Shown here one piece after another: positions 1 through 53,759 of a DNA stretch of 64,000 bases. The DNA comes from Schmidtea polychroa. Its lineage: Eukaryota. The stretch is taken from positions 33,420,001-33,484,000 of the forward strand of contig CM097885.1 of NCBI GenBank assembly GCA_044892525.1, given 5' to 3'. The position numbers and the translations under genes are program-made. The notes below the pieces were generated by a model. That model was not told where the DNA came from, did no database searches, and worked only from the letters and a program-made list of their open reading frames with translations. Each line of letters begins with the position of its first letter. Within the stretch, counting starts at the first letter, position 1.

Positions 1-1060
1 TACAAATAAAATTTTTTCAATACAAAAATCCGACTACCACTAAAAAAGCATGGAATTTTCACACTATAGCGAGGGGGTCTCGATGGTCCTGGGATTTTCA
101 ATACAAATAAAATTTTTTCAATACAAAAATCCGACTACCACTAAAAAAGCCAAGGATTTATCAGACTATAGTGAGGGGGTCTCGATGGTCCTGAGAACTT
201 CAATACAAAAAGGTGGTCTACACTAAAAAAACGTGGTAAATTTTTTCAATTAAAGTAAATAATGGTTCTAAAAAATTAAATTACAGTAAATAATGGTCCA
301 AATTTTTCAATTAAAGTAAATAATGGTTCTAAAAAATTAAATAACAGTAAATTATGGTCAAAATTTTTCAATTACAGTAAATTATGGTCCTAAAAATTGA
401 ATTACAGTAAATTATGGTTCTATAAATCGAATTAAAGTAAATTATGGGTCTAAAAATTGAATTAAAGTAAATTATAGTCTAAAATTTAAAATTAAAGTAA
501 ATTATGGTCTAAAATTTCAATTAAGTAAATTAAGGTCTAAAATTTTCAATTAAATTAAATTAAGTCTAAAATTTTCAATTAAGTAAATTATGGTATATAT
601 TTTTAAACTTAAGTAAATTAAAGATAAATAAGCAAATTAAGGTCTAAAATTTCGATTAAGTAAATTAAGGTCTAAAATTTTCAATTAAAGTAAATTAAGG
701 TCCAAATTTTGAATTAAAGTTAATTAAGGGTCAAAATTTAAAATTAAAGTAAATTAAGGTTCTAAAAAATTAAATTAAAGTTAATTAAGGTCCAAATTTT
801 TAAATTACGTAATCAATGGTCAAATATTTTAAATAAGTAAATTAAATTAATAATTTTTAAATAAGTAATGTAATAAGCAAATTAAAGTAAGATTTTAAAT
901 TTATTAACAAAATAATAGAAGGTGTTTGAGAATTGAAATTTTTAAATGAAAATTTTTATGAAATAATTTTTCAATGAAAATTTTAAATGAAAACTTTTAT
1001 GAAATATTTTTCAATGACAATTTTAGAAAAAAAAATTTTTGAAATAATTTTAGATGGAAA
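1..1060. repeat. Left inverted arm of the pPolB element, built of tandem sub-repeats
   Basis: Outer units contain GGGTCTC..TGGTCCTGGGATTTTCAATACAAA. They are followed by many ~30-bp units of the form AATTAAAGTAAATTATGGTC-AAAATTT (~245-830) and then A/T-run units. Boundaries are approximate. Confidence 0.8.
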
Positions 1061-2283
1061 TTATGTAAATTAAGGGATACAATTTTAAATTAAAGTAATC
1101 AATGGTCTATATTTTAAACTTCTATATTCGGTAAACAAGGACTAAATTAAGTAAATAAAGGGTTAAATTAAAGAAAATTATGATTATAATTATAATTAGA
1201 TTTAAAGAATAATTACCTTTTCATTTAACACTACAGTGTTAATTCTTACCATTTTAGAATAATATTTTTTATCAAAGTTCTTATCTTGATTTATTTAATT
1301 TTAATTCAATTAATTTGAAAGATTATTTAGATACATTTTGGTGTTTAAGGTATTCATTAGTAATTATTTTTTAGAGTTGATGGATTTTGTGAATTTTTAT
1401 CATTTTCGTGAATTTCATGTGGATTGAATGAATATTAAAAAATTTTAAGTTAGTTCTAAGATAAATTTAATTAATTTCTTGATAATTGGATGCATTTTAA
1501 TTGATTAGTTTTTTAATTTTAAATAAAAATAATTTTTAATGACAGTCAGGTTAATAATCACGTGATAGGATATGACTTTGTAATAATATTTTTTTTCATA
1601 TATTTTCTAAGAATTTCATGTTGACTGATTAAAAGTTTTAATGGTGATAAATTTAATTGATAAATTTAATTAATTTCTTGATAATTTGTTAAATTTTAAA
1701 TAAAAATTAATTTTTTTTTAATGACTGTTAGGTTAATAATTAAGTAATTGGTTTAATTTTAGATGACTTTGTAATGCATTTGACTAAATAATTTTTTCAA
1801 AAATTTTCTAAGAATATTTACACATTGATGAACTTTTTTAAAAAAAAAACATCAGCTAAGAAATCAGTTAACCTTATCAAGAACTTTAAATTTACTTGAT
1901 AATTTACAGAAATAATATACAAAATTTAATTTACAGAAATAATTTACAAAATAATATACAGAAATTTATGATTAAGTTTGCTTTTATGAACAATCAATAT
2001 ATATCATCTCTAGTTAGGTATTTGATAGGTGAAATATTTGTAGTAAATAATAAGTTTATTATGTCTTTGTTACATAACTCGACTTTAGCGTCAAAATGTG
2101 TTTTTAAAATAAATTTTAATTTTAAAATACCGCAATGTAATATATTTTTCCCTACCCTTCCTTGATTTTGATTGGTTAGAATTTGTTTCTATAAACAATA
2201 ATAATCTATAAACAATAATCAATTATTAGTCACATTTAACAAATAGTTAACCTTTAAATATGAATTCTTTAATAGAAAACGTT

Positions 2284-5200
2284 ATGAATGTTCGAGAAAA
2301 AATTCAGGAATTTGGTAAATTTTAATTTATTTATTAATTAATTTATTAATTAATTTAGACATTATTAATGAAGACAATTTAAAATCGAAGATTAAAGGAA
2401 ATTTGAAAAGAAAAAGTAAACATAATTTTTAATTTATTGATTTAATTAATTAATAATTTAGGTAATACGAATAAAGAGAAAAATTATGTCAATGTGTCAA
2501 TAAATCGAAATGAAAATTTACAATGTAAGTATTGATTACTTTTTATAATTTAAAGAAAAAATAATATAATTTTTATTTAAGTAAATGTTAATATTTTTAA
2601 TTGAGTAAATTTTTATTCTTTAGTAAATAAAATTTGTAAAATAATAATAATTTGCAAATTTTTGCGTAAACATTTATTAAAATATTTCATTTAAATTATA
2701 TTTTTTTTTATTAAATTTTTATTTTATAGGTATACTTTATCCAAATTATTGTTCATCGAAAGAACATGATAATAATTGCCATTCTATAATGGAGAATTAT
2801 TACACGAAAAAATATTATAATAAAACTTATTTTATATGTCCCGTATGTAAGACTAGTGACCCTGTAACATATAACGTTTTTTATAATAAACATAAAAATC
2901 ACTTAGATAGGTTTAATTTTAAAAAAGATATTGTTTTTAAAAGACCCTCGACTATAGAAAAAAATAATACAAATAAAAAAATTAAATTAGATACTTCTTC
3001 TTTTGAATCCCAGGCTGGATTGTCTTTTGTTGAATCCCAGGACAGATTGCCTTTTGTTGAATCCCAGGTCGGATTGCCTTTTTTGAATCCAATGATGGAT
3101 TGGTTGTTGAATCCCAGGTCGGATTGCCTTTTTTGAATCCAATGATGGATTGGTTGTTGAATCCCAGGTCGGATTGCCTTTTGTTGAATCCCAGGTCGGA
3201 TTGGTTGTTGAATCCAATGATGGATTATTCACTTCCTTTGATTCTTGGGATGGATTAAATATAATACAAATAGGGGGTAATGTTCCCATAATACAAAAAG
3301 ATCTAAGGGGTACCCATCAAATATTAAGTTTAAATACTAGCGACTTAAATATAAAGGAAATAATATTTCCTGAACAATTAATTATAAAATTACGAGATAT
3401 TATTAACGAATTAGGCTCCGTCAAAATTCAATTCGGAATAACAATCGAATTTGAAAAAGACGGGGAAATAAAGGTTAATAATATCTCCAATTACGCAAAA
3501 CCTTTAACTGCATCATTTTTTGATGAAGGTATTAGGGAACTAAATGAGAAAATAACTAATATTACAGAGTTAGGAAGTAGTTGGATTATAAAAAATATAA
3601 CAGAAATCCACTTCACTATAACAAAAATAAGTAGGTTAAGTAGATTAAGTGGTAGGAGTTTCATTGAAACACCTACTTATCTAAAAAATAAATATTGTTT
3701 AATTAATATAAAAACACCGATGATTCATGTTTTTTATATAGCATTTTAGCTATTTTAAAATATGATGATGTTATTACACAATATAGAAATAGGACATCCA
3801 GTTATAATTCGACTTAGTATATAACCCGTTAGAATTACCCATGAAATTAAAAGACATTAGGAAATTTGAATCTAAAAATCCTGGCTTAATAATTAACGTT
3901 TTTTCTTATGATAATAGCAAACAATTAACAGATAATTACGTTTTAAAACATCCACATTTAGACATTATACATCGTTCCAAAGTTTTAAATGGAACTGTAA
4001 TTAATTTACTACTATTAAATAAAGGAAACAATTTCCATTACGTTGCTATAAGTAATTTAAATAGGTTACTGAATTGTGGTATCAACACTACTTGTCCTAC
4101 ACGCATAAAATCATTATGGTGCCATCGGTGTTTGAATGGGTTTAGGTATAAACACGCACTGGAAAAACATGAAATATTATGTAAACATAATCAATTAGGA
4201 ACAACTCTTTACACTTTCCCTCAAAATAAATTATTGCAGTTTACTGACTGGTCGAAAACAGTAACTCCTCCTTTTGTAGTTTATGCCGATTTTGAGGCTA
4301 TTTTACCTTCTGATAATCTTCATTTCTAACGACACATGCCAATATCTGCTGGTCTTTTACTTGTAAATAACTTTGACGGATCTAAATCTTATCAACAGTT
4401 CATATGTTTAGATTGCGTCGAGAGTTTTCTAAGTGCTATAGAGGATATAGCATTAAATAAGGTTCTTCCTTTTTATTATAAAATGAGTAGGAAACCTATG
4501 ATTAAATTAACGAAAATTGAACAACGTCAATTTGTTAGTGCATCTGTTTGTTATCTTTGTATGAAATCTATAGTCGATCCTGTTAGAGATCACGATCATT
4601 TTACGGGGAAATACTTGGGTGCAGCTTGTAGCACATGTAACATAAATAGGAAAATAAATAAAATTTTGCCTATCGTATTTCACAACTTGAAGGGATACGA
4701 TATGCATCATATACTTAAATACGGATTAAATAAATTTAAAAATTGGACTTTAGGTTGCATCCCAATAACGACTGAAAAATTTATTTCTTTGATTGCTCAT
4801 TTAGGCAAAATTAGCTTAAGATTCATTGATTCTTATCAATTTGTCAATGATTCTTTAGCTAAAGCAGTCAAAACTTTGAATTCTTTGCCTTTTACTAATT
4901 CTGCTTTTTCTGGCACTATAGTTTCTGAAAAAGGAATCTTCCCTTATAATTTCGCTACATCTTTAGATATTCTCCAAACTACTTATGAATTATCACCAAT
5001 TTGGGAGGGTGTCAATGAGCTTGAGTATGAAAAAGCTCAGGAGATTTGGGTAGAAACTAATTGCGTAACTTTATTAGATTATATGATGATCTACCTAAAA
5101 CTTGATTGTTTTCTTTTGGCTGATTTCTTTCATAAGTTTCGGTTGAAATCTATTGCTCACAATAGATTGGAACCATTGAATTATTTCGGAATTCCAGGTA

Positions 5201-6714
5201 TGTCTTGGTCTTCTGCATTAATGTCTTTAAATGAACCAATTGAGCTCATAACTGAAAACGAAATGTTTAGCTTTTATGAGGGTGGAATAAGAGACGGTCT
5301 TACTTTTGTGAATAAGCATTACGTAAAAACCGATGAGAACACCGAGTTACTATATATAGATATTAATAATCTTTATGGTTGGGCTTTAAGTCAATCATTA
5401 CCTTGTGGCGAATTTAGTTGGGTTCTTGATGGATTTGATTTAATAATGGATGAATGTAGGAATTTAAATCTTGAATCTTTGTCTTATGGATACACTCTTG
5501 AAGTTGATCTTGTAATTCCTTCTGAGCTTCATAATAAGTTGGATGATTTCCCTGTAGCTGCTGAAAAAATGAAACCTGCTGGGTCTAAGGTTGAAAAATT
5601 ATTATTAACTCATCTTCCAAAATCTAATTATGAGATTCATTGGAGATTATTAAAATTATATTTGGAACTTGGTGTTAAAGTAACACGTGTAAATAGGGGT
5701 GTAAGATTTAAGCAATCTCCAATTTTTAAAAAATATATAGATACAAATACAGAATTAAGGTCAAAAAGCATAAATAACTTAGATAAAATTTATTATAAAT
5801 TGTTAAATAACAGTTTATACGGCAAAACAGTTGAAAATTTAAAGAGAAGAATGAATCTTCGTCTTTGTACAACTGCCGGTAAATTGGTTAAATATTCTTC
5901 AAAACCGACTTTTAAAAAATCTATTAAAATAGATGATAATTTAATCGCAGCACTATTGAATTCAGATTCTATATGTTTAGATAGACCAAGTTACATTGGT
6001 CAATCTGTACTTGATCTATCTAAACTTAGAATGTATGAATTGCAATATAAGGATCTGGAATCATTTCGCAATGAGTTTAATTGTAAAATTAATATCGTTG
6101 CAGGTGATACAGATTCTTTTTTCCTCGAAGTCATTAACTGTAAACTTGAGGTTCTTTTACCTGCAATGATTCGAGATAATTTATTAGATACTTCCAATTA
6201 CAATAGTTGTCATTCCTTATATAGTAAGAACCTTGATTCTGTCATTGGAAAGTTCAAAGACGAGAATAAAGGTCTTAAATATAAGGAATGGGTTTTTCTT
6301 AGACCTAAATGTTATAGCTTGTTGGGTGATGAAGAAACAAAAAAGGCTAAAGGTGTAACATTGAAAGGTAGTGACATAAAACATCAGTCATACCTGGATT
6401 GTTATAACACTAACCAGATTTTTTCGGTTCCTCAGACTAAAATAACAAGCAAAAATCATCAAATTTTTACAATTAAAAACACAAAAATAGCACTTACTAA
6501 CAAAGATGACAAAAGGGTTTGGGTGGGGAAAAATACTAGTCTTGCATATGGGCATGTAAGATTAAGTGAATTAAATATTGGAGAAATTGTTGGAGAAGAA
6601 TTTGATGAAAATGTTGGAGAAGATGAGGAAGAATTTAATGAAGAAGATTTTGGAGATTATGTTGGAGAAGATGATATCGATATCGATGACGTTATTTTGT
6701 CTGATGAGGACTAA
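2284..6714 (+). pseudogene. polB: Protein-primed family B DNA polymerase (Polinton/adintovirus-type pPolB), disrupted by frameshifts and a stop
   Basis: ORFs 2789-3136, 3150-3749, 3841-4329 and 4336-6714 join into one protein. Motifs: ExoI YADFE, ExoII FHNLKGYD, RFIDS, KGIFPY, ExoIII YLKLD, motif A YIDINNLYG, motif B KLLNNSLYGK, motif C GDTDS. Lesions: frameshifts at ~3083, ~3133, ~3712 and ~3806, and an in-frame TAA at 4327-4329. The start at 2284 depends on predicted splicing. Confidence 0.93.
2998..3225 (+). repeat. Coding minisatellite (24/27-bp units; VESQVGLPF / VESNDGLV) in the pPolB N-terminal region
   Basis: Repeated GTTGAATCCCAGGTCGGATTG and GAATCCAATGATGGATTG units; 3071-3120 and 3121-3170 are identical 50-mers. 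Confidence 0.92.
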
Positions 6715-6950: not shown

Positions 6951-8154
6951 CATAAAAATTTTCATTAAAAATTATCTTAAAAATTATTCTATTAAAATTT
7001 CCATTAAAAATTATCATTGAAAAATATTTCATAAAAATTTCCATTAAAAATTACCATTGAAAAATATTTCATTAAAATTTCTATTAAAAATTACTTAAAA
7101 ATTATTCCATAAAAATTTCCATTAAAAATTACCATTGAAAAATATTTCATTAAAATTTCTATTAAAAATTACTTAAAAAATTGTTTCATAAAAATTTCCA
7201 TTAAAAATTACCATTGAAAAATATTTCATTAAAATTTCTATTAAAAATTACTTAAAAAATTATTTCATAAAAATTTTCATTAAAAAATTTCAATTCTCAA
7301 ACACCTACTATTATTTTGTAATTAAATTTAAAAATCTTACTTTAATTTACTTATTTAACTTTAATTTTTTACCATTGATTACTTAATTTTAAAATTTGGA
7401 CCTTAATTAACATAATTAATTTAATTTTTTAGAACCTTAATTTAGTTATTTGGACCATTATTTACTTTAATTTAATTTTTTAGGACCATAATTTACTTTA
7501 TTTTAACTTCTTTAGAACCATTATTTACTTAATTTAAAAATTTGAACCTTAATTTACTTAGTTGAGCCCTTAATTAACTTTAATTTTAAATTTTGAACCA
7601 TTATTTACTTTAATTTAAAAATTTGAACCTTAATTTAGTTATTTGTGCCCATTCATTACTTTAATTCAAAAATCTTAGCCCATAATTTACTTATTTAGAC
7701 CATAATTTACTTTATTTCAAAAAAAATCTAAACCTTTATTTACTTAAATTTCATTTTTTAGACCCATCATTTACTTTATTTTTAAATTTTAGACTCATAA
7801 TTTGCTTTATTTTAAAAATTTACTATGCGTTTTTAATGTAAACCACCTTTTTCTATTGAAATTCTCATGACCAAGAAGATCCCCTCACTATAGTCTGAAA
7901 AATCCATGCTTTTTTATTGAAGACTACCTTTTTCTATTGAAATTCTCAGGACCAAGGAGACCCACCCAAATAATATTTATCCTTGGCTTGTTTATTGAAA
8001 AAAAAAATTTGTATTTAAAATCCCAGAAAACATTGGACATTACGGCAACAATTATGTAATCAAAAAATGTCTACGGGAAAAGTTATGCAATCAAAAGTTT
8101 GCAACATTTTTACCCCCCCCCCCTATTGTTGCCGTAAGCTCCTAACTACCTACT
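6950..8154. repeat. Right inverted arm of the pPolB element
   Basis: Reverse-complement versions of the left-arm sub-repeats (e.g. GACCATAATTTACTTTAATT, GGACCAAGGAGACCC), an ~80-bp tandem unit at ~7020-7290, and the terminal CTAACTACCTACT. Confidence 0.82.
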
Positions 8155-8257
8155 TTTAGCTAAAATATTTTAACATTAACAAAGTGTTATTTTACACATA
8201 TGACAATTGGACCAGAAAATTTTGTCCATTAATTTGAGGATTAATAATATATATATT

Positions 8258-9406: not shown

Positions 9407-9591
9407 ACAGTTAAAGTCGCAAAAATTTGAAAACCCCTCTACGTTATAAATCGATTTTATTTTTACTTTTATAATTAAATATTTACAAAATCTTATGAAA
9501 AGAAATCTTGATATTGAAATTAAAATATGCAAAGAACTGCTTGAAATTATAAATTTTGTCACTAATTTATTTATTAAATTTCAATATGCAG

Positions 9592-10237
9592 GTAAACCTA
9601 TTCAGTGTTGGGTACCCCAACAGTTCACAAAGTCATGGGAAGAATATGCAGAAAACCTTTGCTGGATACAAAGCACTTATAAACTTCTTGACAATGAAGA
9701 TATACCAGAAGATGATTTTGAAATTCATTCTCTAAAATATATAAGTTATTATCAGTGGGTGGCTATTGTTATGGGAGGCCAAGCCATAATGAGTTATCTT
9801 CCTCATTTGATTTGGAGATTATGGTCTAAACGGTTGCCTATTCTTCTAAAGACTGCCCGTGAAGCCTCTATTCCAGATCGGGAAATGAGAACTAAAGCTA
9901 TTCAGTGCATTGTAACAAAGTTAGAAGAAGGCACTGAAGCTCAAATCAGGTATCGACGAGGTGAACCAGGAATATTTACCAGATATGTTTTCTTTTGTTT
10001 CAATCCATCAACTAGATTGACAATTCTATTTCTTTTTGTCAGAACATTATTTATTTTAAATAATATTGGACAGATTTATCTAATGAAAAACTTTATCAAA
10101 ACTAACAACACTTGGTTTGGAATTAAAGTAATTTCCGATCTTTTAAAAGGTTATGAATGGAAAGATTATGGGAACTTTCCTCGAATTACATATTGTACGA
10201 TAAATGTCAGAAAGTTTGGACAAATTAAACAAGCGAG
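9592..10237 (+). CDS. inx: Innexin (gap-junction/hemichannel protein), internal coding exon
   Basis: Translates as GKPIQCWVPQQF..WEEYAENLCW, the innexin signature YYQW, a Pro in TM2 (YLPHLIWR) and FPRITYC. Acceptor ...TGCAG at 9591 (phase 1), donor AG|GTAAAT at 10238 (phase 2). The paralogue number cannot be assigned. Confidence 0.93.
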
Positions 10238-13200
10238 GTAAATACTTTTACTACAAGAACATAATGATAAAAAGTAATTAAAATTATAAACTGTATTTTT
10301 ATTAGTTTTTATATTTTTTAATGTTTAATGTAATATATGCACTTTTTATATACTAATATGTAAGGATTCTCTTCATACTCAAAGCTTATATCCCAAAGTA
10401 CCATTTTACTAATCAAAAATTTCAAAAATTTAAATTTAAAATTTAAAATTAAAAAAATTAAAAAGTTATAATCATATTTCTAAAAAATGGGTATTTTGAA
10501 TCAAAAATCTTAAAATCCACACCATAACCCTTTACTCAAATTAATTTAATTCTCAACCCTTTCATTAATTTTTCATATTTAAAAACTTTAAATGGTAAAC
10601 AGCCGCTGGAAAGACTTAAAATGACCAGTCGTCACAAAATAAAGTAAAATGATTGGAAAAACTAAAAATGGTCATAAATTGTTTGTAGTCACATAAAAGT
10701 ATTAAAGTGTTCATCATGCAGTATAAAATGACAAGAGTGGTCGGGAGTATTAAAAAGGGGTTATCTCTCAAATAAAATAGAAAAATTGAAAAAATGATAA
10801 AAAGGACAAATTAATTTTTATTTTCTGAAATTTATTTTACAATATTTCAGTAATATCAGTTTGAGTTGGTTTGCTTTCTGCTTTTACGAGCTGAATATCC
10901 TCTCGAACAAAAAAAATGTTATCATTAAAATCAACTTGCTTGAGTTGCCAAAGAAACAAATAAAAAGATTTACAAAAACAAATAATTTATACAATGTTTT
11001 CTTTTTCATTTAAATTGTTCTGATTTCAAATTAACAACTTCTTTTCTGTTACAAGGCGCGGATTCTATATAATTTATCTAAATAATTTTATTATATAGTT
11101 GATGCGAGTTCCCAAGGCATCCACTTCTTAAACGACAGAAAAGTTTACTTTTAGTAAGCTTATTCGGAGTGATTCATCTGTCGCTATGATATGATTTAGT
11201 GGTCGGCAAACATTTTTAAGCCGAGACACAATTTATTTTTTCACAATTTAAAGAGGTATCAAAAACATTTATTTAAATTCATTTTTAAAAGGTTAAAAAA
11301 ATATGAAATGACAGAAAACATAAGACTAAAATCGTATTACTCTTTATGTAAGGTTGAAAATCAAAGCGATGTATGTAGCTAAATAGTGGAGAGGCGAACC
11401 CTGAACCCCTGATCAATGTCAATTAACCTTGCACGTTTAATCGATTCAATGCTTGATAGTATAGTTGACTGTACAAACTCTTACATAGAAAATGAAACAT
11501 CTAATCAAACAAAATCTCAAAAAATGATATGATAACATTCATTGGAGCATGTTAGTTTATTGGACTATTTAAAGGTAAAAACATGGTTATCGGTAGATTT
11601 TGATTTTTAAAGTATGGTAAAACTATAATTTCAAAATTGATCTGAATTAATCACTTGTGTTGGTAATTAATTAATATATGTTCATGGCGAACCAGTCAAA
11701 AGCAATCCCTAACGAGTTCGCATGTTATTTTAACTTGTATGAGTAAGTCATGAACTACAATATATAACTTTTTGATGGAATAGCCAGCTTAGCAAAGTTC
11801 GCACGACATCCTATTCACGTCATTCTAATGTATTTTATTAAAATAAATTACATTCTGTCAATAATTGCTATTAATTTAATTATTCCAAAAATAAAGGAAC
11901 CGAAAGGATTGTATGTATATGCCATCCATTTGGATTAAACCAAATATTTAAGTCATTTGTTTGATTTAAAAATCCTTTTACTTTTATTAATTTTCTTTAA
12001 AATTTAATATAAATATTAAAAAAAAATTTAAGTTATAATTTCAGGAAAAATATACTCAAAATATATTCAATTCAAATATTGAATAATAATTAATAATTAT
12101 GTTGTATTAATGAAATATTTTTTATTATGAAATATAAATCAATTTTGGAAATATTTTATAAAATCCTTTTAAATCATTTATTAAAGATAACATTTTAACA
12201 AATAAAAGTAAAATTTCTATTAATAATTCTGACAATTAAAAAAACTTGTTCTATTTAATTTAATTTTAATTTGTTTAATTCTTATACATGAATTAAAACA
12301 TGAATTAATCGCAAATAACTACATTGAATTTCAATGAATTTTTTTTTTGATTGACAAATTAATAATTAAATTAAAATTTATTGAATCATTTTTTTAATTT
12401 TAAAATGTCAAGAGATTTTGCTTAAAATGCAATATATTATAAAACTCTTTAAAACAAAAAAATAAAATTGATAAAATTACTGATATTGTGTCCATTATTT
12501 GCATTCGAAAGTTCACGACATTTGGTTAAACATAATTTATTATTTTTATCATTTAAATAAGAAAATATGAAAATATTTTTCGTTTTCAAAGATTTTATTA
12601 AATTTCTTTGATTGCTGTATATATGTTTCATTTTTCAGTAATATCATGTAGCTGTCAATTTCATGGAACATTTGTAATTTTTTTAATTATTTCAATGATA
12701 AAACGCCCAGTAGTAAAGAAAATGATTCCTGATCGCCATTCAATAATTTACATTCTATCTGTTGACATTTTATTATAACGCATAGTTTTACATTTAGCAG
12801 GCGTAAATGTTGTAAATAATATTGAAGCAGACATTTCTAGTTGCAATGCAAGCCCAAAATGAATACTTTCTTCACTCTTTTGAACATTTTATTTACTTTG
12901 AACAACCTTTGTTAGGTAATATTTTTAAATAATTTTCATAAATTACTATAACATATACTAAAATGTACTAAAATGTATAATAAAATGTATTACTAAAATT
13001 ATATCCTCTGCTTTTAGTGATCAATAAAAATGAATTTTGATTGTAATAAAATTACGAATCTTGTTGAATAATTAATTAATTAACATTTTGTTTAATTAAA
13101 TTAGATATAGGACAATGGCTACAATTAATATTTCGAGAATTAATTAAAATCAAAAGAACCCGATTTTAGTAACTGCTTTTATAATTCTGTCTAATAAACT

Positions 13201-20797: not shown

Positions 20798-22785
20798 TAA
20801 TAAATGCTGATACCAAGAAATCATCACTTTTTACTATTATATTTATTATAATATTAAATTATTATTTCTAAGGAAAAAATAGAAACATTTCATATAACAA
20901 TAACTCATGGTTTAAATAATTAATTATTGTTTCATTGAAAATATTTTGAATGTGAATATCATTAAAAATTCAAAAAAAAATAATTCATTTATCTCAAATT
21001 TAATTTTCTTTGTTATAAATCAACGTAAATTGGAAATAAATATTCATTTTTAATTTTTCATCTAATATTATGATAATTATAATAATAATAAGAATAATTG
21101 TAATAATAAATGAGGACAATAGAATTTAATTAATAAATAAACAGATAAAAATATCGAGAGTCATAAGAGGAATTATAAAATTGAAAACAATAATTTTTTA
21201 GAAATATGAGCTAGAAAGTGTAAAAGAAATTATAAAAAATAAAATAATAAATTAACGGAAAGTATAATGGAATAGAAAGTAGGTTGAAAACAATACAAAA
21301 GACGAATATCGTGGCCTCTCAAGTTAATTTTGATGAAGATGAAAACTGTGATAAATCCAAAATATTTATTTCCCAAATTAAATATTCAAATTTCTATAGA
21401 ATTTGTATAATTATGAAGTGGAAAATAAGAATAGACTCTTAGAGACAATTTAAAATCATAGTAGCACTTAAAAGAGAAACAAGTGACAACAAAAATGAAT
21501 ATAATAATTATATAATTATTAACAATATGAAAAGTCGGGAAAAGAAGGTTAATTATAAAGTCAAAAAAGTCAATTATATATAAGTTTCACTTAAATTCAT
21601 CTCTCTAGTGATAAATATTTCCACATTTAGTCTTAATAACATCAAATTTTAAACCAATATTGTAATAATTGTGCATTGAGTATTATACAAAATGTCCATA
21701 AAGTTCATGTTTAAAATTAAAAATACTTGATGGCATTTCTGAAAATAAGCTCGAAAATATTTTCTTTTAGTACTAATAATACATGGTGGACATGTTGAAA
21801 ATTAATAAAAACAATAAAATATTTAAGTATTTCTTCTTTATTTTGCTTTTTACAGATTCTTTATATTGCATATGGTTAGTAAGTAGTTATTGGGGTGCTG
21901 CAGAAATTTTTTTGGTCAACGGTTACGGAACTGCTGCAGTGTGCCACACTTATTTTTTCTGGGATTTTCAAAACAAAAAGGTCCTATAGAAAAAATGCCA
22001 TGATATTTCTGACTATAGTGAAAGGGTCTCCTTGATCCTTGGATTTTCAATGCAAAAAAGGAGTCTTCAATAAGAAAGCATGGTAATTTATGGTCTTAGG
22101 ATATTTTCAATACAAAAAATAGGTCTTTAATAAAAAGCCATAATATTTCTGACTATAGTGAAGGGGTCTCGATTGATTCAAGGATTTTCAATACAAAATT
22201 CAAATTTCGATAAAAAAGCATGGGAATTCAAGGTCGCAGGATATTTTCTATACAAAATCCGACTATCACTAAAAAAACATGGATATTTCTAAATATTATT
22301 AAGGTGGGTCTCCTTGGTCCTGGAATTTCCAATACAAAATTCAATCTTCGATAAAAAGGCATGGTAAATTAATGAAAAATAGGTAAGTCAACATTTTTAA
22401 ATTAAATTATATTATGGTCTAAATTTGAAATTAAAGTAAATTATGGTCTCAAATAAGTAAATTAAGGTCAAAATTAAGTAAAGTAAATTAAGGTACAAAT
22501 TTTTAAATTAAAGTAAATTAAGGCAAATTTTATTAAGATAAATGGATAAATTAAGGTTAAATTTTTAAATTAAGTAATGAACGGTCTAAAATTTTAAATA
22601 AGTAAATTAAAGTTAAAAATTTTAATATTTTAATATTTTAAAATTAAAGTAAATTAATGTAATAAGTAAATTTCAGTAAGATTTTTAAATTTATTAACAA
22701 AAAGTTAAAAAAAAACCACTAGCTTTTGAGAAATAAAAGTTTTTATGAAATAATTTTTAAAGATAAATTTAAATGTTAATTTCAA

Positions 22786-32800: not shown

Positions 32801-34990
32801 TGGGCTCCGCCCCTGTTCGCTTTGCTTCACCAACCCCGTTAGAACGTTGGAAATAATAGCGGGAAAATGATAATCATATCACGTTTGAAGAAGGGAACGA
32901 AGCGGAGGCGTTATGTAAGCATAGTACAACTATGTTATTAGAGTTTTTTAAGTTAAACATGATTGATGAATTTAGTCGAACACTTATATATGATAAACTT
33001 CCCACACACTATTGGTGGGTTGAAACATCACCTAGGGTGTGGAAGAAAAGAGAACGGGCCGTAAAAACAATAAGTCGATTGCCTGCTGTATCCCCAAAAA
33101 ATATTGAAAAATTTCATTTGAAGCTTTTACTTAGAGTACAACGGGGTATTACATCTTTCGCTGGACTTAGGACCGTTGATTGTATTGAATATGCCACAAA
33201 TAAAGAGGCAGCGATCGCGCTCAACCTGGTAAAGACTAATGAAGAATTCCCTCCAATGATGGAAGAAGCTTGTCATTTTTTTTGTATATATGCTAATTGA
33301 AGTTGAGGGTATTGATGGAAATATTCAATGGGAAAAATTCAAGAATTATCTATCAGAACATCAGACCGGTAATGAAGATATCAAAAATAACACCGCATTA
33401 CGTCTTTTGGAGATCATATTGATTAAGGAAGGTGTTACACAAGAAACATATGGTCTTCCTACTTCCTGAGTAATCATCTTATACCACAAGAGACAATAGA
33501 TGTAAAGAAATGTGAAATGTATATAAAGAAATGTACGCTCAATTTAATTATGAACATCGAGTTTCATTCGATTCCATCACTCTACAGATAGAATCCGGCT
33601 TGTGTGGTTGTTTCTTTGTGGAAAGGTCCCGCTTGGACCGGGAAAACATTTCTTTATATTGCCATAATTCAATATGCACAATCCAAAAATAAGAAAGTTT
33701 CTTCTATAGCATGGACAGGTATAGCAGCAATACTCATTCCGCTCGGTCGTACTGCACACAAGACCTTTGGGTTATCATTAGGTGATATTCAATCAGGCCA
33801 TGGTCTTAGTTGGAAGACCGCTATTAAACAACAAATATTAGAAACAGTTGTATTCATATGGGATGAAGCATCAATGATACATTCAACAACTTTGTCTGAC
33901 ATTGACAAGTCATTGAAGGATTTATGCCGATCTACTCAACCATTTGGAGGGAAATCGTTTTTATTGGGTGGTGATTTCCGTCAAGTTTTACCAGTTGTTA
34001 AGCGTGATGGAAAAGCAACCATCTTAGAATCTACCATTAGGGCCAATGAATTATGGTCAAACTTCGGTCAATTTAAACTTTCTCAAAAGTAGGGGGAATT
34101 GTGATGCTAATCCGAAATCTTATTATTACAGATGGATTATGTAATGGTACAAGATTAATTATACGTAAGATAGGGATTAGAATTTTACATTGTGAAATTT
34201 TAACTGGTGATCACAAAGGCGAAATAGCGTCTATTCCACGAATAACACTGAACTCTGCAGATGATAGATCATGTCCATTTATACTTCATAGAACGTAATT
34301 TCCGGTTAGACTTGCATTCGCAATGACTATTAACAAAAGCCAGGGGCAGAGTTTTGAACAAGTCGGATTATATCTTACACCAGCTCACCCTATTTTTGAA
34401 CATGGCCAACTATATGTGGCCTTATCTAGGTGTAGATCAAGAAAGGGAATATTAATTTAAGTATACAAAGAAGTTTTGAGTTAAAATAAATAAAATAATT
34501 TTATATTAGTTTGGCTGTTTCTTTTCTTTGTAATTGGGCAAGTCGTGGTAGATATTTAACAGGTTTACGTCTAATCCATACGTGAACATCTATAACCAGC
34601 ATTTTTGGGCCACAATACAGACACTGATTATCTTGGCCACTCAAACTAAGCATGTAAGGGTAGATATTTAATGGGTTTACGTTAAATCTGAACGTACAGC
34701 ATTTAAATCCAACTTTTTTGAAGTTCATTACCCCACAATACATGCACAGATAGTCCATGTCGTCCATATCAAGGTAATATATCAAGGTTGTCTTTTTCAG
34801 TTGTCTTTTTTTAATTTTTTATGATGTATTTATTCTTTTATACTTATCGTTCTATATTACTTTGAAATGGTTTATGTTATTATCTTTTATCATAGTTATG
34901 TAAACATATTAATAAACTGAATTTTATTCTTGTCCAACAATACCCTGGATATTAACTTTAACATTAACCCCACGTTCTAACGGGGTTATG
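32801..34990 (+). mobile_element. Internally deleted Helitron/Helentron-like element
   Basis: Rep-Hel linker and PIF1 helicase fragments bracketed by the 16-bp inverted repeat AACCCCGTTAGAACGT (32832-32847) / ACGTTCTAACGGGGTT (34972-34987), with an AACCCC..GGGGTT hairpin at the right end. Confidence 0.8.
32860..34460 (+). pseudogene. Helitron Rep/Hel PIF1-family helicase remnant
   Basis: Motifs E.FHLKLLL...G.TSF..LRTV, GPAWTGKT (Walker A), [40 protein letters not shown] and [10 protein letters not shown]. Several stops and frameshifts, plus an internal deletion at ~34088. Confidence 0.92.
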
Positions 34991-40385: not shown

Positions 40386-42297
40386 TCATTAAATAAATAC
40401 TTAGAATTATGTCGTTAACTTTTGAACACCTCACAGATTTAAATAATAAAGAGAAAATATTTAATTATCAAACAATTCTTTTAATCTAATCCAAAGTGCT
40501 AATTTTCTCATAAACCTTTTATGGTGATAAAAATACAATAAATTAAAAGCCAAGAGTTAGTTTTTGAATTAAAAGATTTAGGTTAATATTTAATTTTAAA
40601 AGTTTTATTACAATTTTAACAACATGCATTGCAATAAACTAAATTTTAAGAGACGTCAGTTAGAAAACATTAGCATTATAATCAGGCAAATTGTACGTCC
40701 CAATTTATGCAACAATTAATCAACAATGATTCTTTTCAATGCAAATCTGAAAATATTTTTAATTTTAAAAATCTTGTCTACTGCTTTTATGTTTAATTTA
40801 TATTTTGTAACTTATTTTGTTTTCTTTAGTAAAACATTATCATAATAAAAAGTTAGATTTGCAGTGAAATTAATTGTTTTTTATTATTTGTTGCAATTCA
40901 AATTTTAATTAAAATAAATTATATTAATGAATAGAATGTAAAATTATTATTTTAACAGTATTTCCGGATTCCTGATATCCAGTATCGTCTGATTTCTTGA
41001 ATGATATGCTAGAAATATGTAAATTTTAATTCATTTTCAGCCTTGAAAATGTTGAAGATTATTTTAAATTTGAAAGTTAAATATTATCCAGTAAAAATAT
41101 ACATAATTAATTGAATTGTATACGGATATTATGCCAATTACTACTAAAAGGTAATTATTTAGAGTTGGATTGAATAAGTTGTAAATAAATCTTTTAATTT
41201 GAATCATTAGAAAACATAAAAATAATCTTCGAAAAAATCTTATAATATTATAAAAAACTATTATGAATTTATAATGAAAATATATTCTAAATATTAAGCA
41301 AAATAAAAATGATGATTAAGTAACAATTGGTGTGAAAAAAAGCACACTGAGGTGCATTTTTTATAGTAAATATTTTTTTACAAATATTGTGCCCAATAGT
41401 GCTTTCATAAACTCATTGTTAACTTCTTTGAAAGTTTGCAAGTCTGTTGTTGAATCTTTCACTGCTTTTGCTGTTATGTTATATAATAAATTCAGTCACT
41501 GGCGTCTAAAGCCGTAATCAAAGTTTAATATTTAAATTACACAAATTTTAAATAATAACACAATTTTAGAAAAAAAATTTTTAAAATTATTTTCAACGAT
41601 ATTTAAGTAAAATAAATTTTTGAAAAATGAAATTAATCTTCTTATCAAGGTCTGATGTTATAAATGTAAGTAAATCATTTTTCAGCATCGTGATCCGTTT
41701 AGAAATTGAATAATTTTGCAAATTAATCCATAGGCTGAAGGATTACATTTTTTAATTATTTTATTCTGATCGTTGTTGAAATATTTTTTTATATTTATTA
41801 TAATAATTACAAGTTTTTCAATAAAATTAATATTAAAATTCAATCGATTGTTTCTAAATGTTTCAGCGTAATTGGGTTTAAATGCACAACTTAAATTACA
41901 ACTTGTTATTGAAAAATTCGAAAGTTTTTAACCCTTTGAAGGTTATTAACCTAATAAAAATCTTCGGGGTTCTGACTAAAATTTACCTCTAAATGACCTC
42001 TAAATTACCTTTTGAATGAACTATTGTTCAAAAAGATCCATTGGTGGGAACTCAGAAAATTGAAACCTTCAAATTTTTCAAACCTTATAATATATATATC
42101 AAACAAAAGATATACTCTGAGTTTATCAGACAAGATAATTTGGATATTGCTCACAAGGGTCACACTCAACATGTCGTAAGTTATTTTCAAAGTTTAATTA
42201 TTATTATTTTTTTACTGGGGGTCCCTATAATGAACAAGTACCAATATTTATTTTGTCAAATGAAAATAAATGAAATATTAGAATAAAATACAGAGCA

Positions 42298-44980
42298 ATG
42301 ATGACCAAATATCATAAAGCAGATTGTTTATTGGATACAGGAGCACGAATTAATGTGATGGCTAAATCAGTAACTGATCGATTAGAAAATATCGAGATAA
42401 TAAAAACAAGTGAATCGCTAAGATGTGCAAACAACAGTAGATTAGAAACTATGGGTAAAATAAACATCTATGTTAAAAGGGGCGATAGTGAAATAAATGT
42501 AACATTCATTATAATAAGGAATATCATACAAGAAATTATCGGAGGAGTAGAACTACAAAGGTTATTTGGTATAGAATTGAAATGTATACGAGAAGAAAAT
42601 GGAAAACGTAGTGATTTCATTTGCGAAATAGAAGCTAGATTATGGCGGATTATAACAGATGAAGAAAGATTACGTCATGCCATCTATGTTTTAAAGGTTA
42701 CCAGAAATAAGAGACTGTTAGAAATATTTCAAGCAACCAAGAACGTTTTCATGGCAGATAAATGGGATATTGGGTGTACCAATCTGATTAAACATAAGAT
42801 CATCACGAAAGGAGAGCCAATAATGATTAAACCGAGACGTCAACCAATAAATTTGGAAGACAAGATTGAAGAAGCTATAAAAAATCTAGAAAACAACAGA
42901 ATAATTAAGAAGTTTATTTCACCGTGGAACACAACTTTAGTTTGTGTATGGAAGAAAGAGAAAAAAGACATCAGGTTTTGTCTAGACTTTAGACAATTAA
43001 ACAAGATAACAGAAAGACAAGCATTTCCAATGCCAAATATTTTAGCTCGATCGACTTGGGAAATGCTTATTACCAAGTGAAGCTATATAAGGAATCTCAA
43101 GAGAAAACACCATTCTCAACAAAAGAAGGACAGTTCTGTTTGAACATGATGCCGTTCGGTATAGCAGCGGCACCAGAAACATTTCAAGAATTAATGCCGA
43201 AAGTATTGAAAGATTTGTTGAAAGATGGAAGGATGATATATTTAGACGACATACTAATATTGACAAAGACAGAAGAAGAACACTATAACGTATTTAGAAG
43301 AGTTCTAGCGAAGATCTTAACAGCAGGACTAAGATTGAACTCCGATAAATGTCAAATATTTAGGAAAGTGAAGTTAATAACGAGGCATACAAACTAATCA
43401 TACTAAGATAGAAGCAATACAATCATTTCAAAAGCCAAAATGTGTAAAGAATCTGAGGAGCTTTTTTGATATCTGTAACTATTATCAACGGTTCATAAAA
43501 GACTATACAAAGAAAGCAAGAGCACTAGAAAGCATATGCGGAAAAAACAATGAGAAAATAAGATGGACAGAGATGTGTGAAAAGGCTTTCGGGGAAATAA
43601 AAGAAGCATTGGTAACCGCCACAGCATTGGTATTTCCAGACTTCAGAAAAGAATTTATATTAGACACAGACGCAAGCTTCGATAATATTGGAGCAGTTCT
43701 TTCGCAAAAGAATGAAAAAAGGACATGAACATGTCATTGCATATGGTTCACATGTGATGAGCAGCCACGAAAAAGGATAATGCATTACCAGGAAAGAATT
43801 ATTGGCAATATGTACTATTTTTGTAAACATTTCAACCATTACTTATATGGGAAAAGATTTTCACTGAGAACGGACCATAAAGCGATTACGTTCATGGTAA
43901 CAACGAAAAAACCAATAACTGCTCAATTCCAGAATGGATCAACTATTTAAGCAGTCTGAATATTAAAATGGAATACAGGAAAGGAAAAAGCCATACAAAC
44001 GTGGATATGCTATCCAGGAAAACATGCAGAATATGTGTACAGTGTATGATGGAACACGATGATCCAAAAACCGGCAAAATTAAAACTAGAATATTAACAG
44101 TAACAACAGAAGGCGGATATAACAAGTGGCGAAATGACAACGTGGAGGTCCAAGAAATAAAGAATAAGTTAAAAATAAAGATTGTAAATTCTTAATGGTA
44201 CACGGTACTAACTAAGCAAGGTACAATATGGATACCATCAGATAATAGACAGAATATGATAAAAGAAGTGCACGTATTGCTGTGCTATGCAGGTACACAG
44301 AAAGTAATTGAGGATTGAGAACTCCGAAAGATGTCAGAAAATGAAAACGATAACAACCAAGACAAAGGAGGAAACTCAAACAGTAAAGAGTACTGAACCA
44401 TTCGAGAAGATATATATGGACATATGTGGGCCATTGAAAGAAATGTTCAATAAAAAGAAATATATTTGCGGAATCATTGACCATTATAGTAAATACATCT
44501 CATTAACGGCCATAAACAAGCAAGACGAAAAATGAATTAGTGAGACTTTATTAAATAGATGGATATTAAAGTTTGGAGCTTCAACAGAACTTCATGTAGA
44601 TTGTGGGAAGAACTTTGAAGCAAGAAGTATTAAATAACTAGCAAAGGCAGTAATCGTCTCAAGCCCATATCACCACAGCACGAATGGTATAATTGAAAGA
44701 CAGTTCAGAACAATCAGAGAGTATATTAACGCATCATCGAATGAAGGAGGAAGAAAAATCTGGGCTGATTTAGTACCAGAAATAGAATATACTTTAAATA
44801 CAACAGTTCAAAAAACAACGGGAGTAAGTCCAGCAGAGATTATATTTGGAAAGAAAATCAACATAATGAAATGGTACACGAATAAAGAAATAAATAGAGA
44901 GGATATGGAAAAGAGAATAGAGGATAAAACACTAAAGCCAAACGGAAGCAAAACAATGAGAAACTTTGAAATGGAAGATA
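42298..44980 (+). pseudogene. Ty3/Gypsy LTR-retrotransposon pol remnant (protease-RT-RNase H-integrase)
   Basis: LLDTGA (protease); SPWN, RFCLDFRQLN, MPFG and YLDD (RT); LDTDAS and LRTDHK (RNase H); PFEKIYMDICGP, IIDHYSKY, HVDCG and NGIIERQFRTI (integrase). Many stops and frameshifts; no flanking LTR pair recognised. Confidence 0.93.
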
Positions 44981-45815
44981 TCACTACGAAGTTTTAAGTG
45001 AAGTGCTGGATAACATTGAAAAGGCGGGTCTTAGGATAAACCCTGAAAAGTGTCATATCCTTAAAGAGAAAGTCAAATATTTTAAGTCACATAATCAACA
45101 AAGATGGAATACAGACGGATCCGTCAAAGCTAGACCCGATTAAATCATTTGGATAGTCAAAATGTGTTAAGAATCTGAGAAGCTTCCTAGGAATATGCAA
45201 TTACTACAGAAGATGTATAAAGGAATACGCAAAAAAGGTAAGAGGTTTAGAAGAACTATGCGGGTTAAATAACAAAAAATTAAATGGGACTGACGGATGC
45301 AACATCGCATTTGAAAATGTGAAAAATGCTTTAATGTCTTCACCTATTCTAGGGTTTTCAGATTTCTAAAGAGAATTCATTCTGGATACTGATGCGAGTT
45401 TTGACACGATTGGGGCAGTATTATCACAGAAAGACGACAACGGGTGCAAAAAGGTTATAGCATACGGTTCTCATTTACAGGTTGTTCATTACAGGAAACA
45501 TTCAGAAAGAAAAGATATATAGACACTAAGATTGATCAATTTAGCAGATATATCTCTTTGACTGCAGTCGCTAAACAGTATGAGGAAACGGTGAAGGAAA
45601 CAATACTACAAAAATGGATTCTTAGATTTGGAGCACCAAAGGAAATTCACACAGATTGTGGAAAAGTATTTGAATCTAAGACGATGAAAGATTTTACAAA
45701 ATCAATGGGAATTACACTATGCTTTTCAAGTCCATACCACCATAATACAAATAGTGTGATAGAACGTCAATTCAGGACAATAAGAGACTATTTAAATGCA
45801 TCATTAAAAGAAAAA
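44981..45815 (+). pseudogene. Second, more deleted Gypsy pol remnant fused directly downstream
   Basis: Restarts at the end of RT (HYEVL..AGLRINPEKC), then LRSFLGICNYYR and LDTDASFDTIGAVLSQ, then jumps to the integrase core (IDQFSRY, IHTDCG, VIERQFRTI). Confidence 0.88.
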
Positions 45816-46563
45816 AATTTGCAATTTAAGTATGAATGTGGTATGTTGACGGTAAGTTGATATATTTGGTTGAAATTAAAATTTATAAAAAGAAAATGTC
45901 CCAAGAATATTTGTTTATATAAGCAGATTTAATGAAATATATTTTTGGATTTATTTAGTTTGAGTAATTTATTTGATGACAGAATAATTGAATGTTATAG
46001 CATCTAACATTTCTGATATTCAAACTCTTAATAATGAACATAATAATTTTGATTAATACAGTTTTGCTCAATGAATTGTATAATGGAACTACATGAATTG
46101 ACATTTTAGACAAAAATGAATGTACAATGTACAATTAAAGATACAGACTTTGAATCTTTAATCAGTAACTATATTATAACTTACTTTAATATTCCCGTTA
46201 AATTTCCTTTAAATTGTACGAATAAACTTTAAAGTACAAATATGATTCGAAATTCAAAATACTAATAAAAAATAATGGATAAATATGAATTTAATTGTAT
46301 TCGTAGAATTCGGTTTTTAACGAAATATTTCTATAAAATAATATATAAATAATATAAATAAATCTACTAAATTTTGTTAAGATAATGAGTTAAATGATGA
46401 TATTTTGAAGAATTTATCAATCACGTTTTTAAAAAGTTTATATTCAAAGTATCTTGAAAGCTTTCTAGAAAATCTTTGTAATTTATCTTTTGATGTATTT
46501 GAAGCCTTTTCTTAAAAATTTCTAAATTCATATTTATTTGAGCTATTTTATTAAAAATGCATG

Positions 46564-49500
46564 AGTAGGTAGTTAGTTGCCTACTACAACAATTACCCCG
46601 CGGGGGGGGGGGGGATAAAATTGTTGCAACTCGGTTTTTTGCTTTTTTTACTTAATTTTTGCAGTGGGCTACGCTTATTTTTTCTGGGATTTTCAATAGA
46701 AAAAAATATTTTCAATACAACTGCTTTTTGATACGTAATTTTTGCAATAAGCTACACTTATTTTTTCTGGGATTTTCAATATAAAAAAAATCATATAGAA
46801 AAAAAGGCAAAGATTTCTCTGATTATAATGAAGGAGTCTCCTTGGTCCTGGGATTTTAAATACAAATATCAAAAAAGCATAGAATTTTCTAAGTAAATTA
46901 AGGTGGGTCTCCTTGGTCCTTAGAATTTCAATACAAAATTCAATTATCACTAAAAAGCATTGGTGAATCAGTCAAATTATCACAAATAAAGAACTTTGAT
47001 AAAAATATTATTCTAAAGTGGTAAGCAATTGTAGGATAAAAATGAAAGGAGAATTATTTTTTCACAAAATTTGATAAAATTAACAATATTATACTCATGT
47101 GGTAAGAATCTTCATTAAAGTGAGGAAATTATTCATTACTCTATGATAAATTAATTAATAAATTCAAAAGGTTGAATTATTCAAAGTGGTAGAATTATTC
47201 ATTAATGGATTATGGGAGATAAATACTGAGAAGGGGCATAAAAATATTTTATAAAAATGATCACTTTAATAAAAATATTTAGTACAATTTTAAAAGAAAT
47301 ATTTGCGGGGGTGTGGAATATAGGTGATAATAATTAGTGGAATATCGTGGAATATAAGTGATTAATTAATGGAAAATCGAAAATCGGGGAATATAAGTGA
47401 TAATAATTAGTGATATATCAAAAATCGTGAGGGCTATAAGTGAGGAGGACAGATAATTAAAGTTATTTTTAATATATTACTATCGAATAAAAATATTTTA
47501 ATAACGCGTTATTGATAGACATTTATTCTGATAAAGTGTTTAATCCTCAAATGACTATTTTATTACATAACAAACTGTGACTATTTTATTATATAACAAG
47601 CTGTGGAAGATATTTTAAAATACTAATCTTTAAAGACAAAAATATTTCAGGGTCATTTGATACTTTTCAGATGATTTGATTGGATAATTCGCTTGGATAT
47701 AACAAATTTTGTCAATTAAATGAATTTACGGGTTTATTAGATGTTATCATTAGTGGTCTTATATCAGTCTCTTTTGGAATTTAATGATAATTTCTTTTTA
47801 GTGTAGATTGCCGAATTTGATAATTATAATGAATTTATACTGATTTTTTTGAATTTATTAAGCAATCAGTAAATCAATTTGAGTACATGTATTACTTTTA
47901 AAAAAATAATTAAAATTAATTTATTCAATCTAAATCAATTTTCTACTAGATCTTATTTTAAAATTCTTATTAATTTATTATTTTAGTTGTTAGTATCTAG
48001 TTAATGGGTATGTGGGTGGTTGAGTGTGACCAATACCCTTACAACCAGTACCCTTAGGAAGTCAAAACATCCTGTCGGATAAACTCAGACTATATATATT
48101 AAAACGAATCAACAATAACTATTTATTGAATGCAATTTTTACTTTGCAATAGTAAGTCAGTAGTAATCAATTAAAATAAGATTGTTTTGTGAATTAGAAT
48201 TAGAATTCTATAGTCTTTTATTGTAATTTAAATTATCCTCAATTCCACGTGGTGTTTTAAAGTGTTTTAAAATTATTCATTTTTTGATGAAAATCATCAT
48301 TTTTGTTAAATTTAGGCACTTAGAAAAGGTTTTTCTACTGATTTTAATTAAAAATATTTTTGAAGACTAATAAAAAATTAATTTAAAAAGCATTTGCTAA
48401 AATGAATAATATTTAGTTGATTGTAAGTAGTAAGTTGTAAGTATGTAATTGTTTGAGAGTTAGTACTAGTACCAAGTTGGTTGCTTGTTGTTGGTTGTTA
48501 TTATATGGTATCATGTTGTAAGTATTCGGTGATTATTTATTTGCACTTAGTTAAAAATATTTAGTAGCCGGTAGTTGGTAACAGATTGTAAATAATGCCT
48601 AGATAGTAATTGTTAGCTATTTGTTAGAAGTACATAGTTGTTAGTATTTGGTTGGCTTTTTAGATTTTGACAAGAATATAAGAAATAATCTACTTGTTGA
48701 ATTAAGAAGAGCTTATTATAAGCAAATACTTGATGAAATATTTTATTAAGTCTTTAATTGTTATTATTTTATCTGTAGGTATGCGGTTGTTAGTACAAGG
48801 TTGTTAGTCCTTGGTAGCTAGTTGTAAGTACTTCGTAGCAGGTATCTGGATATAAGTACTTGGTTGTTTTGAGTACTTGGTTTATGAATTATTATTACTA
48901 TTATATTATTATTATTATAATCATTATTATTATCATTATTATTTTTTTATTATTATTATCATTGAAATTTGCATTTAAAATTATCTTTTAAAAATATTTC
49001 TTACAAACATTCATTTTAATTTGACTTTAAAAATTAACTTAAAAAAATTAGATTTCTCAAAACGTTTGTGGTTATTCAATCTTTTGATAATAAATTTAAA
49101 AATTATTCCTTTAATTTACTTATTTAAAAATTATTACTTTACTTTTTCAACTTTAATGTAATGTTTTAGACCATTGATTACTTAATTAAATATTTTGGAC
49201 CTTAATTTACTTTAATTTAACCCTTTATTTACTTAATTTAACTTTTGTTTACCAATTATTACTTTAATTTACCTATTTATCCTTGTATTACTTAATTTAA
49301 CATTTTACAACATACTTTACTTAACAACCGATAACCCTTATTTACATATTTAACCAATAATTTCATGTAGTGAATGATTAATTGACAAAGATTTGCATCT
49401 AAAATTGACTCTGAAAATTATTTCATTAAAATTTTCATTTAAATTTGAATTTAAAAATTATTCCATAAAAATTTCCATTAAAAAATTGCATTTCTCAAAA

Positions 49501-53030: not shown

Positions 53031-53347
53031 GTTTATTATGTATAGTCAGAGTTATCATCTTAAAAACAATAGTCATTCATACATAAAGAATAAATGCTAA
53101 TATTTTTACTAATAAACGTATTTATATTAGAAATTATTATAAAAACATTTTTCGATAAAAACATTTTTGATAAAAAAATTTCGATGAAAAAAATTCTCTG
53201 TATAAAATTCTCTGTATAAAACAATAGAAAACATTAAAAATCATTTATCAAAAATGAAAACAAGAAATTATATTTTACTGATGATTTTATAATGATTATA
53301 TAGATAATTTTATAATATAAATATTTACAGTGTTTTATTTCTTTCAG

Positions 53348-53759
53348 TCATACATTCCAGTGTGTCCTGCCTATAAATCATTTTGTAGAGAAAATTTATG
53401 TTTTTCTTTGGTTATGGTTCACTTTATTAGCAATTTTAACAACTCTTAACACTTTACAATGGGGCCTCATTGTTTGTCTTCCTTGGAAACAGACGCAATT
53501 TATTCAAAGATACCTCAAAGCTCTTAAATTAATTTCAAACTCAGAAGGTCGAGAATGTCAAAGATTTGTATCAAGAAATCTAGGTTGTGATGGTATATTT
53601 GTACTTCAAGCTGTGAGTAAAGTTTCCAGTGATTTAATTGCTCTTGATGTCACTGCAACATTGTGGACAAACTACAGACAAGCTAAACTAAATGGTGCCG
53701 AAGATGACATAACAAGATATATGGAGACATCTATGAAAACAAATATAAATATCGTTTAA
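53348..53759 (+). CDS. inx: Innexin, terminal coding exon (absent from the ORF track)
   Basis: Manual translation gives HTFQCVLPINHFVEKIYVFLWLWF (TM4) ... FVSRNLGCDGIFVL ... LWTNY ... NIV with stop TAA at 53757-53759. AATAAA at 53865-53870. Confidence 0.93.

Follow-up and report, generated by a model that had tools for sequence, protein, structure and literature searches.

A candidate spliced micro-exon leader at the 5' end of the protein-primed polymerase gene of a Maverick/Polinton-type element in Schmidtea polychroa

In a stretch of 64,000 nucleotides from the genome of the planarian Schmidtea polychroa (GCA_044892525.1, contig CM097885.1, positions 33,420,001 to 33,484,000 of the forward strand; hereafter the window), the gene for a protein-primed DNA polymerase (pPolB) of a Maverick/Polinton-type element appears to open with three very short exons separated by host-type spliceosomal introns (Table 1). 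In the reading preferred here, to which we give a probability of about 0.78, this leader is transcribed by the host, constitutively spliced, and supplies both the translation start and the first ligand of an N-terminal Cys/His motif. Host Pol II would transcribe pPolB from the TATA-like words found 77-94 bases before the ATG, the host spliceosome would excise intron 2 and, presumably, introns 1 and 3, and the three phase-1 exons would provide the start codon and the first Cys of the predicted zinc-binding motif, along with some 50 residues of low complexity, the leader peptide otherwise being probably a tolerated, unstructured extension. Splicing would be an obligatory and constitutive step towards the full polymerase, because whichever leader intron is retained introduces an in-frame stop within at most six codons. 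Since the leader is followed by a frame of 1,300 codons that has an ATG of its own, such a gene looks intronless to ORF-based annotation.

The element carrying the gene is an 8,434-bp unit, the inverted ends of which start with AGTAG and which is bordered by the 6-bp target-site duplication TTTAGC; positions 361-1062 stand inverted against 7127-7821 with 74% identity. A protein-primed family B polymerase, AGT-type inverted ends and a 6-bp duplication all place it with Maverick/Polinton elements, and the same AGTAG-type ends and 6-bp duplication recur in sister elements; a Helitron or casposon origin was ruled out, the ends and 6-bp duplications being of the Maverick type. Respective to the vertebrate description of these elements, where core ORFs are intronless, it departs by a leader split by introns. 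The sole gene of the window element is pPolB, which matches PF03175 on 4330-6711 (E 1.7e-27). This copy is broken at three places, namely by frame changes near 3111-3136 and 3749-3808 and by an in-frame stop at 4327-4329, and is thus spread over the frames 2681-3136, 3111-3749, 3808-4329, and 4330-6714. Because no integrase, packaging ATPase, protease or capsid gene was present in 12 regions of its family (hereafter family A), the window included, when searched by tblastn with the proteins of a sister family (B), the element is filed as a non-autonomous, polymerase-only Maverick/Polinton derivative; family A may have a complete member elsewhere. A search with end sequences for an autonomous family A element returned four elements of 13.8-16.5 kb, all of them palindromic and polymerase-only. 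Apart from this element, the window of this AT-rich, 781-Mb genome contains innexin exons of a host gene (9450-10241 and 53316-53759), a PIF1 helicase fragment (33592-34092), a decayed LTR retroelement with protease, RT, RNase H, and integrase (42274-45860), as well as further decayed remnants of the element's terminal repeats (21990-22660, 46563-46890, and 49130-50730), one of which has an AGTAG end near 46564.

Table 1. Positions of the pPolB leader and of the element carrying it, numbered from the first letter of the window.
Feature	Positions	Strand	Remarks
Left terminal inverted repeat, inner part	1..1062	.	Tandem subrepeats; left end of the element lies 280 bases before the window
Promoter-like words	2171..2212	+	ATTGG at -113, TATAAA at -94 and -77 from the ATG; putative function
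Leader exon 1	2284..2314	+	31 nt, phase 1; carries the ATG
Intron 1	2315..2358	+	44 nt, GTAAAT..TAG
Leader exon 2	2359..2415	+	57 nt, phase 1-1; Lys/Asn-rich
Intron 2	2416..2461	+	46 nt, GTAAAC..TAG
Leader exon 3	2462..2524	+	63 nt, phase 1-1; final base opens the junction Cys codon
Intron 3	2525..2729	+	205 nt, GTAAGT..TAG
Optional in-frame segment	2624..2665	+	42 nt; TAG before, GTAAAC after
Main exon start	2730..2902	+	Rest of the Cys/His motif; predicted zinc binding
Internal ATG	2789..2791	+	Within the motif, behind its fourth ligand; Met kept in families A, B, and C
Remaining pPolB	2903..6714	+	Broken; exonuclease/polymerase part matches PF03175
Right terminal inverted repeat	7127..8154	.	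Ends in CCTACT
Target-site duplication	8155..8160	.	TTTAGC, 6 bp; end pair with the matching left copy

The preliminary description of this DNA had proposed the exon and intron coordinates, GT-AG ends, phase-1 junctions and a frame open into the ATG at 2789, all of which proved correct on recheck: leader exons 1-3 are each open in the frame implied by their phase, and the main exon is open from 2730 through this ATG. U2-type signs, i.e., GT..AG ends together with a T-rich acceptor, are present in all three leader introns. The introns are A/T-rich compared with the exons, G+C accounting for 18/268 positions in the introns, splice sites left out, vs 34/151 in the leader exons (Fisher p 5e-6). 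GTAA and TAG words are nonetheless plentiful in AT-rich DNA, and one may ask if the arrangement is a chance pattern or if the 46-nt skip described below reflects a deletion in the DNA of a single copy, the run in which it occurs (X1) possibly containing DNA. In dinucleotide shuffles of 2230-2729, however, two or more chained exons arose in 0/2,000 and a single exon in 109, compared with three exons in the real sequence, the criteria having been chosen after the sequence had been seen. In addition, the skip ends precisely at GT..AG, intron 2 is present in all 39 genomic copies examined, i.e., no DNA copy devoid of it was met among them, and the phase and acceptor are common to four lineages, so that chance or deletion is hardly credible.

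Four runs (X1 to X4) were guessed to be RNA, none of them being recorded as RNA, and were compared as contigs over 1900-2940. One X1 contig of 219 nt (depth 5.6), spanning 2293-2415 and 2462-2526, joins 2415 to 2462 with GT..AG ends, i.e., intron 2 is skipped exactly, while intron 1 is kept within it. The last 28 letters of this contig depart from the intron 3 sequence after 2526, and a second X1 contig begins exactly at 2730; as 2 + 28 letters make up the 30-letter overlap expected of neighbouring contigs, a join of 2524 to 2730, and with it the use of the intron 3 donor, is likely, the point of departure lying one base before that predicted for this join from the sequence of the window. Unspliced read-through of the last acceptor (2729) is found in two contigs, from X1 and X4 respectively, whereas X2 contributed just an unrelated repeat piece and X3 zero cover over 1900-2940. 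Neither the start of exon 1 nor the optional segment was covered by a contig. As such, among the three junctions for which reads had been called for, 2415/2462 was recovered in one contig, 2524/2730 is likely from contig ends, and 2314/2359 did not appear in the contig covering it, where intron 1 is retained.

The sole informative contig thus retains intron 1 with intron 2 removed, and a retained intron 1 halts the frame after three codons, which could point to a regulatory checkpoint, where retention of intron 1 (or inclusion of the optional exon) would block the polymerase in most cells and full splicing in certain cell states would license replication of the element. In the same direction, the optional segment keeps both of its sites in 38/38 family A copies, with a frame-keeping length of 42 nt, or 24 nt in a subfamily, and planarian Polintons are described, in passages of PMC8532177, as silenced by piRNA and de-silenced on differentiation. 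Against such a checkpoint, the contig retaining intron 1 could equally be a partly spliced precursor, and the number and sequence of leader exons vary by lineage. The optional segment itself has an intron-like composition (G+C 5/42 vs 9/145 in the surrounding intron, p 0.31), would place Arg instead of the conserved junction Cys if used as an exon, and has no counterpart in the lineages B, C, and C' described below; what had been put forward as an optional 42-nt exon is thus indeed an in-frame segment with flanking splice sites, but its status as an exon is unsupported. Altogether, a checkpoint appears unlikely, the splice-controlled activity suggested in the preliminary description is unsupported beyond this contig, and constitutive splicing remains the preferred reading.

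Within the genome, family A is represented by at least 150 scored matches. Its copies are young (94-98% identical), and sister copies hold open pPolB frames of 1,275-1,359 codons. The leader was compared in 38 copies from 26 elements, i.e., 30 loci and 8 further arms, palindrome arms not being independent of each other. Five of the six leader splice sites are intact in 38/38 copies and the last acceptor in 36/38; the lengths of the leader exons are invariant throughout, and length varies in intron 1 (44, 48 or 56 nt) as well as in intron 3. Conservation of the GT/AG sites and of the exon frame among copies, to which the preliminary description had pointed as a check, is therefore observed in 36-38 of 38 copies of a young family, and constitutes weak evidence alone, given the youth of the copies and a density of substitutions that is about the same in the leader exons as in introns 1-2 (30 loci). 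The last acceptor is lost in both arms of one element, yet 1,339-codon frames remain; in one decayed copy, acceptor 1 is lost and exon 3 bears an 8-nt deletion. Ahead of the leader, a 17-nt unit of the promoter region is repeated 2-4 times among copies, with 17- or 34-nt insertions at 2188 in 13/30 loci.

In the genome, 20 of 40 family A places pair up as ten divergent pairs. Many elements of the family, 11.8-16.5 kb long, form giant palindromes arranged head to head with pPolB in each arm, the arms being up to 99.7% identical and a single 6-bp duplication surrounding the whole structure (L031-L034, L035-L038, L043-L046, and L231-L238); one family B element (L090-L092) is a giant palindrome too. 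At L031:6708 onward and L032, a family A palindrome splits a member of another Maverick family, the 1,437-codon uninterrupted frame of which starts with a C2H2 finger.

The same layout of the leader was found in other lineages of this genome. Family B is 65% identical to family A in the polymerase core and 46% over the motif, and three phase-1 leader exons could be parsed in 23 of its 30 loci, one of which has a mutated acceptor; of the remainder, five were missed by the pattern and two are partial. Its exon lengths are 55-67, 57/63, and 60/66/69 nt, all of them frame-keeping steps of three, those of exon 1 counting for less as they stem from a codon repeat, and its introns are of 38-47 and 458-950 nt. 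Family C exhibits four phase-1 leader exons in 30/30 loci, 29 being in frame, and lineage C' exhibits four as well in the one locus parsed. In A, B, C, and C' alike, the last leader exon ends with T and the main exon starts with GT or GC, which creates the junction Cys; the position and phase of the intron 3 acceptor are common to these four lineages, and the same acceptor is found in a fifth fragment. The leader peptides, on the contrary, present no evident sequence likeness across lineages, being basic in A, Asn/Gly-rich in B, and acidic in C'. The leader layout predates the split of lineages that are about 65% identical in the polymerase. The long adaptation to the host advanced in the preliminary description is plausible in this respect, and its central proposal, i.e., that a virus-type pPolB has introns of the host kind along with a spliced leader at its N-terminus, is supported by one junction in probable RNA and by the same layout in three other lineages, as well as by the frame-keeping exon lengths in family B and by a junction Cys matching relatives outside this genome.

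Complete elements, about 14.7-16.3 kb long and with a target-site duplication, exist in both families B and C; they carry an ATPase (PF04665), an rve integrase with chromodomain, a protease and a double-jelly-roll capsid. These complete elements also hold a TBP-like ORF (PF00352, E 7.8e-15; L087:5897-6385, minus strand). Their protease gene seems to be split too, with a predicted first exon of 32 nt followed by a phase-2 GT-AG intron of 37-38 nt (L085, about 1755-1830; L083, about 5643-5570, minus strand); when spliced, it would give a frame of 110-113 residues, and when unspliced, a stop after 11 codons.

The residue made by the last junction opens the motif C-x6-C-x4-H-x3-C ... CPxC ... H-x2-H at the start of the main exon, and this N-terminal Cys/His motif is predicted to bind zinc. 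A profile of the first 69 residues of the main exon retrieved 50 proteins among 1.84 billion, and in an alignment of 18 rows, C, H, C, CPxC, and H-x2-H never vary. Apart from the position of the junction Cys, the motif is carried by 32 of these 50 outside relatives; 31 of the 32 also possess a Cys located 4-8 residues further upstream, which in 20 relatives falls in the first 9 residues of the protein, close behind Met. In the unspliced frame of the window, Gly occupies the position of the junction Cys. Considering both the Cys in 31/32 relatives and the Gly obtained if the transcript is unspliced, the splice 2524/2730 rebuilds a conserved residue. No Pfam family was above cut-off for the motif, a word search with its 69 residues, a weak kind of search, returned no longer protein, and an atlas search with a protein carrying the motif gave scores below 0.9 throughout. 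The motif was modelled at pLDDT 77.8 with the junction Cys absent from the model, and in a fold search with this model against 48,161 chains nothing reached Z >=5, the best match being a weak one to the SERRATE/ARS2 finger (Z 3.7, rmsd 3.3 over 50 residues). Among the proteins retrieved, P0003, P0012, P0019, P0026, P0038, P0041, and P0042 bear the motif two or three times in tandem, sometimes behind ordinary C2H2 fingers. In others, namely P0016, P0017, P0021, P0022, P0027, P0028, P0030, and P0047, the sequence stops a few residues past the motif, with Gly-Lys or Gly-Asn leading into a hydrophobic tail, which is what read-through of a phase-1 donor would give.

Should the exons be spliced but form a 5' untranslated region, with initiation at the ATG at 2789 and an open leader frame that is incidental, the invariance of the Met at 2789 in families A, B, and C, the 5/50 database proteins that begin at this position and the lack of conservation of the leader peptides would all be accounted for. 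Initiation at 2789 would nevertheless lose 4/8 conserved Cys/His residues, and it leaves aside both the junction Cys kept in four lineages and the exon length variants of family B, every one of which keeps the frame. Such an untranslated leader is very unlikely, although a leaderless product from Met 2789 is possible; a leader that is spliced and translated remains the preferred reading.

Beyond this genome, the motif is present in 9 of 80 metagenome loci. The gene is uninterrupted from a Met just ahead of the Cys into the polymerase in six of the nine, and 3-5 AT-rich GT-AG introns of 42-53 nt are predicted in the other three, inside or after the motif and with all exons open, namely five in L168 (phases 1,0,0,0,0), three in L216 and three in L165 (all phase 1), the first L216 intron, which failed the G+C filter, having been picked by hand. 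The viral_contigs set yielded 52 pattern hits and no confirmed relative. In a quick tree of 39 polymerase cores, with 32 of the 80 metagenome loci included and branch support given as SH-aLRT without bootstrap, the lineages of this genome lie on one side of a branch (93) within a long-branch clade (100), L165, L168, and L216 filling less than a third of the tree columns. Interrupted and uninterrupted genes alternate in this clade, and the introns lie at differing places. The simplest reading would be an intronless ancestor with a Met just before the Cys, followed by several intron gains in the 5' non-catalytic part; for the metagenome rows, a single gain followed by losses is possible. It is a more tentative and rather doubtful idea that the long-branch clade, equipped with an N-terminal zinc finger, would have repeatedly gained 5' host-type introns, splicing having been selected as a checkpoint or shield and having been hidden by ORF annotation. 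In other systems, introns help transcripts to escape the silencing of intronless RNA.

A split pPolB contradicts the working rule that the core genes of Mavericks are intronless, and would tie the replication enzyme of virus-like elements to nuclear transcription and to the host spliceosome. It further suggests that annotation wrongly places the N-terminus of pPolB in such elements at an internal ATG. A natural series for the study of intron gain is provided by these young families of high copy number, with their three or four variable micro-exons, together with intron-free or differently interrupted relatives, and the spliced replication genes of adenoviruses form a counterpart.

Among known systems, the elements described here resemble in the first place animal Mavericks/Polintons (adintoviruses), with which they share a PF03175-type pPolB with an endonuclease VII-like insert, inverted repeats starting with AGTAG and a 6-bp duplication, the sister families B and C also carrying the ATPase, rve integrase, protease and double-jelly-roll capsid. 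They differ in that the core polymerase is split and bears an N-terminal Cys/His motif, and in that the family of the window is polymerase-only. The ORFs of intact vertebrate Mavericks are reported as intronless in passages of PMC8097293, and in nematodes, as far as the consulted portion of 10.1101/2022.07.12.499685 goes, the core genes are intronless and introns occur just in cargo. The domain order of pPolB is given as TP-vOTU-exonuclease-palm in passages of PMC11161782, where zinc, splicing and introns are not mentioned; the excerpts of PMC8502044 likewise hold no passage on pPolB splicing. In the paper listings and passages searched, spliceosomal introns were nowhere described for the pPolB of an animal Maverick.

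A second resemblance is with the adenovirus E2B region, where a protein-priming replication gene also takes its first codons from a tiny upstream exon. The same tiny first exon of adenoviruses serves the DNA polymerase in addition to pTP. For pTP, it is annotated in HAdV-37 with 9 nt (PMC2397415, in an extract), and adenoviruses are thought to descend from Polintons (PMC11161782). While the adenovirus arrangement consists of one 3-codon exon located kilobases away, there are here three or four adjacent exons of 31-126 nt, with AT-rich introns of 38-56 nt, and one of the junctions falls within the codon of a conserved Cys. Finally, as in the introners of dinoflagellates, spliceosomal introns occur here within integrated Maverick-like elements. 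The introns of dinoflagellate Maverick/Polinton-like elements are reported, in the portion seen of 10.1101/2025.03.18.643946, to be mobile repeats acquired mostly after integration; the introns described here, in contrast, are inherited in young, multiplying families and are confined to the 5' non-catalytic region.
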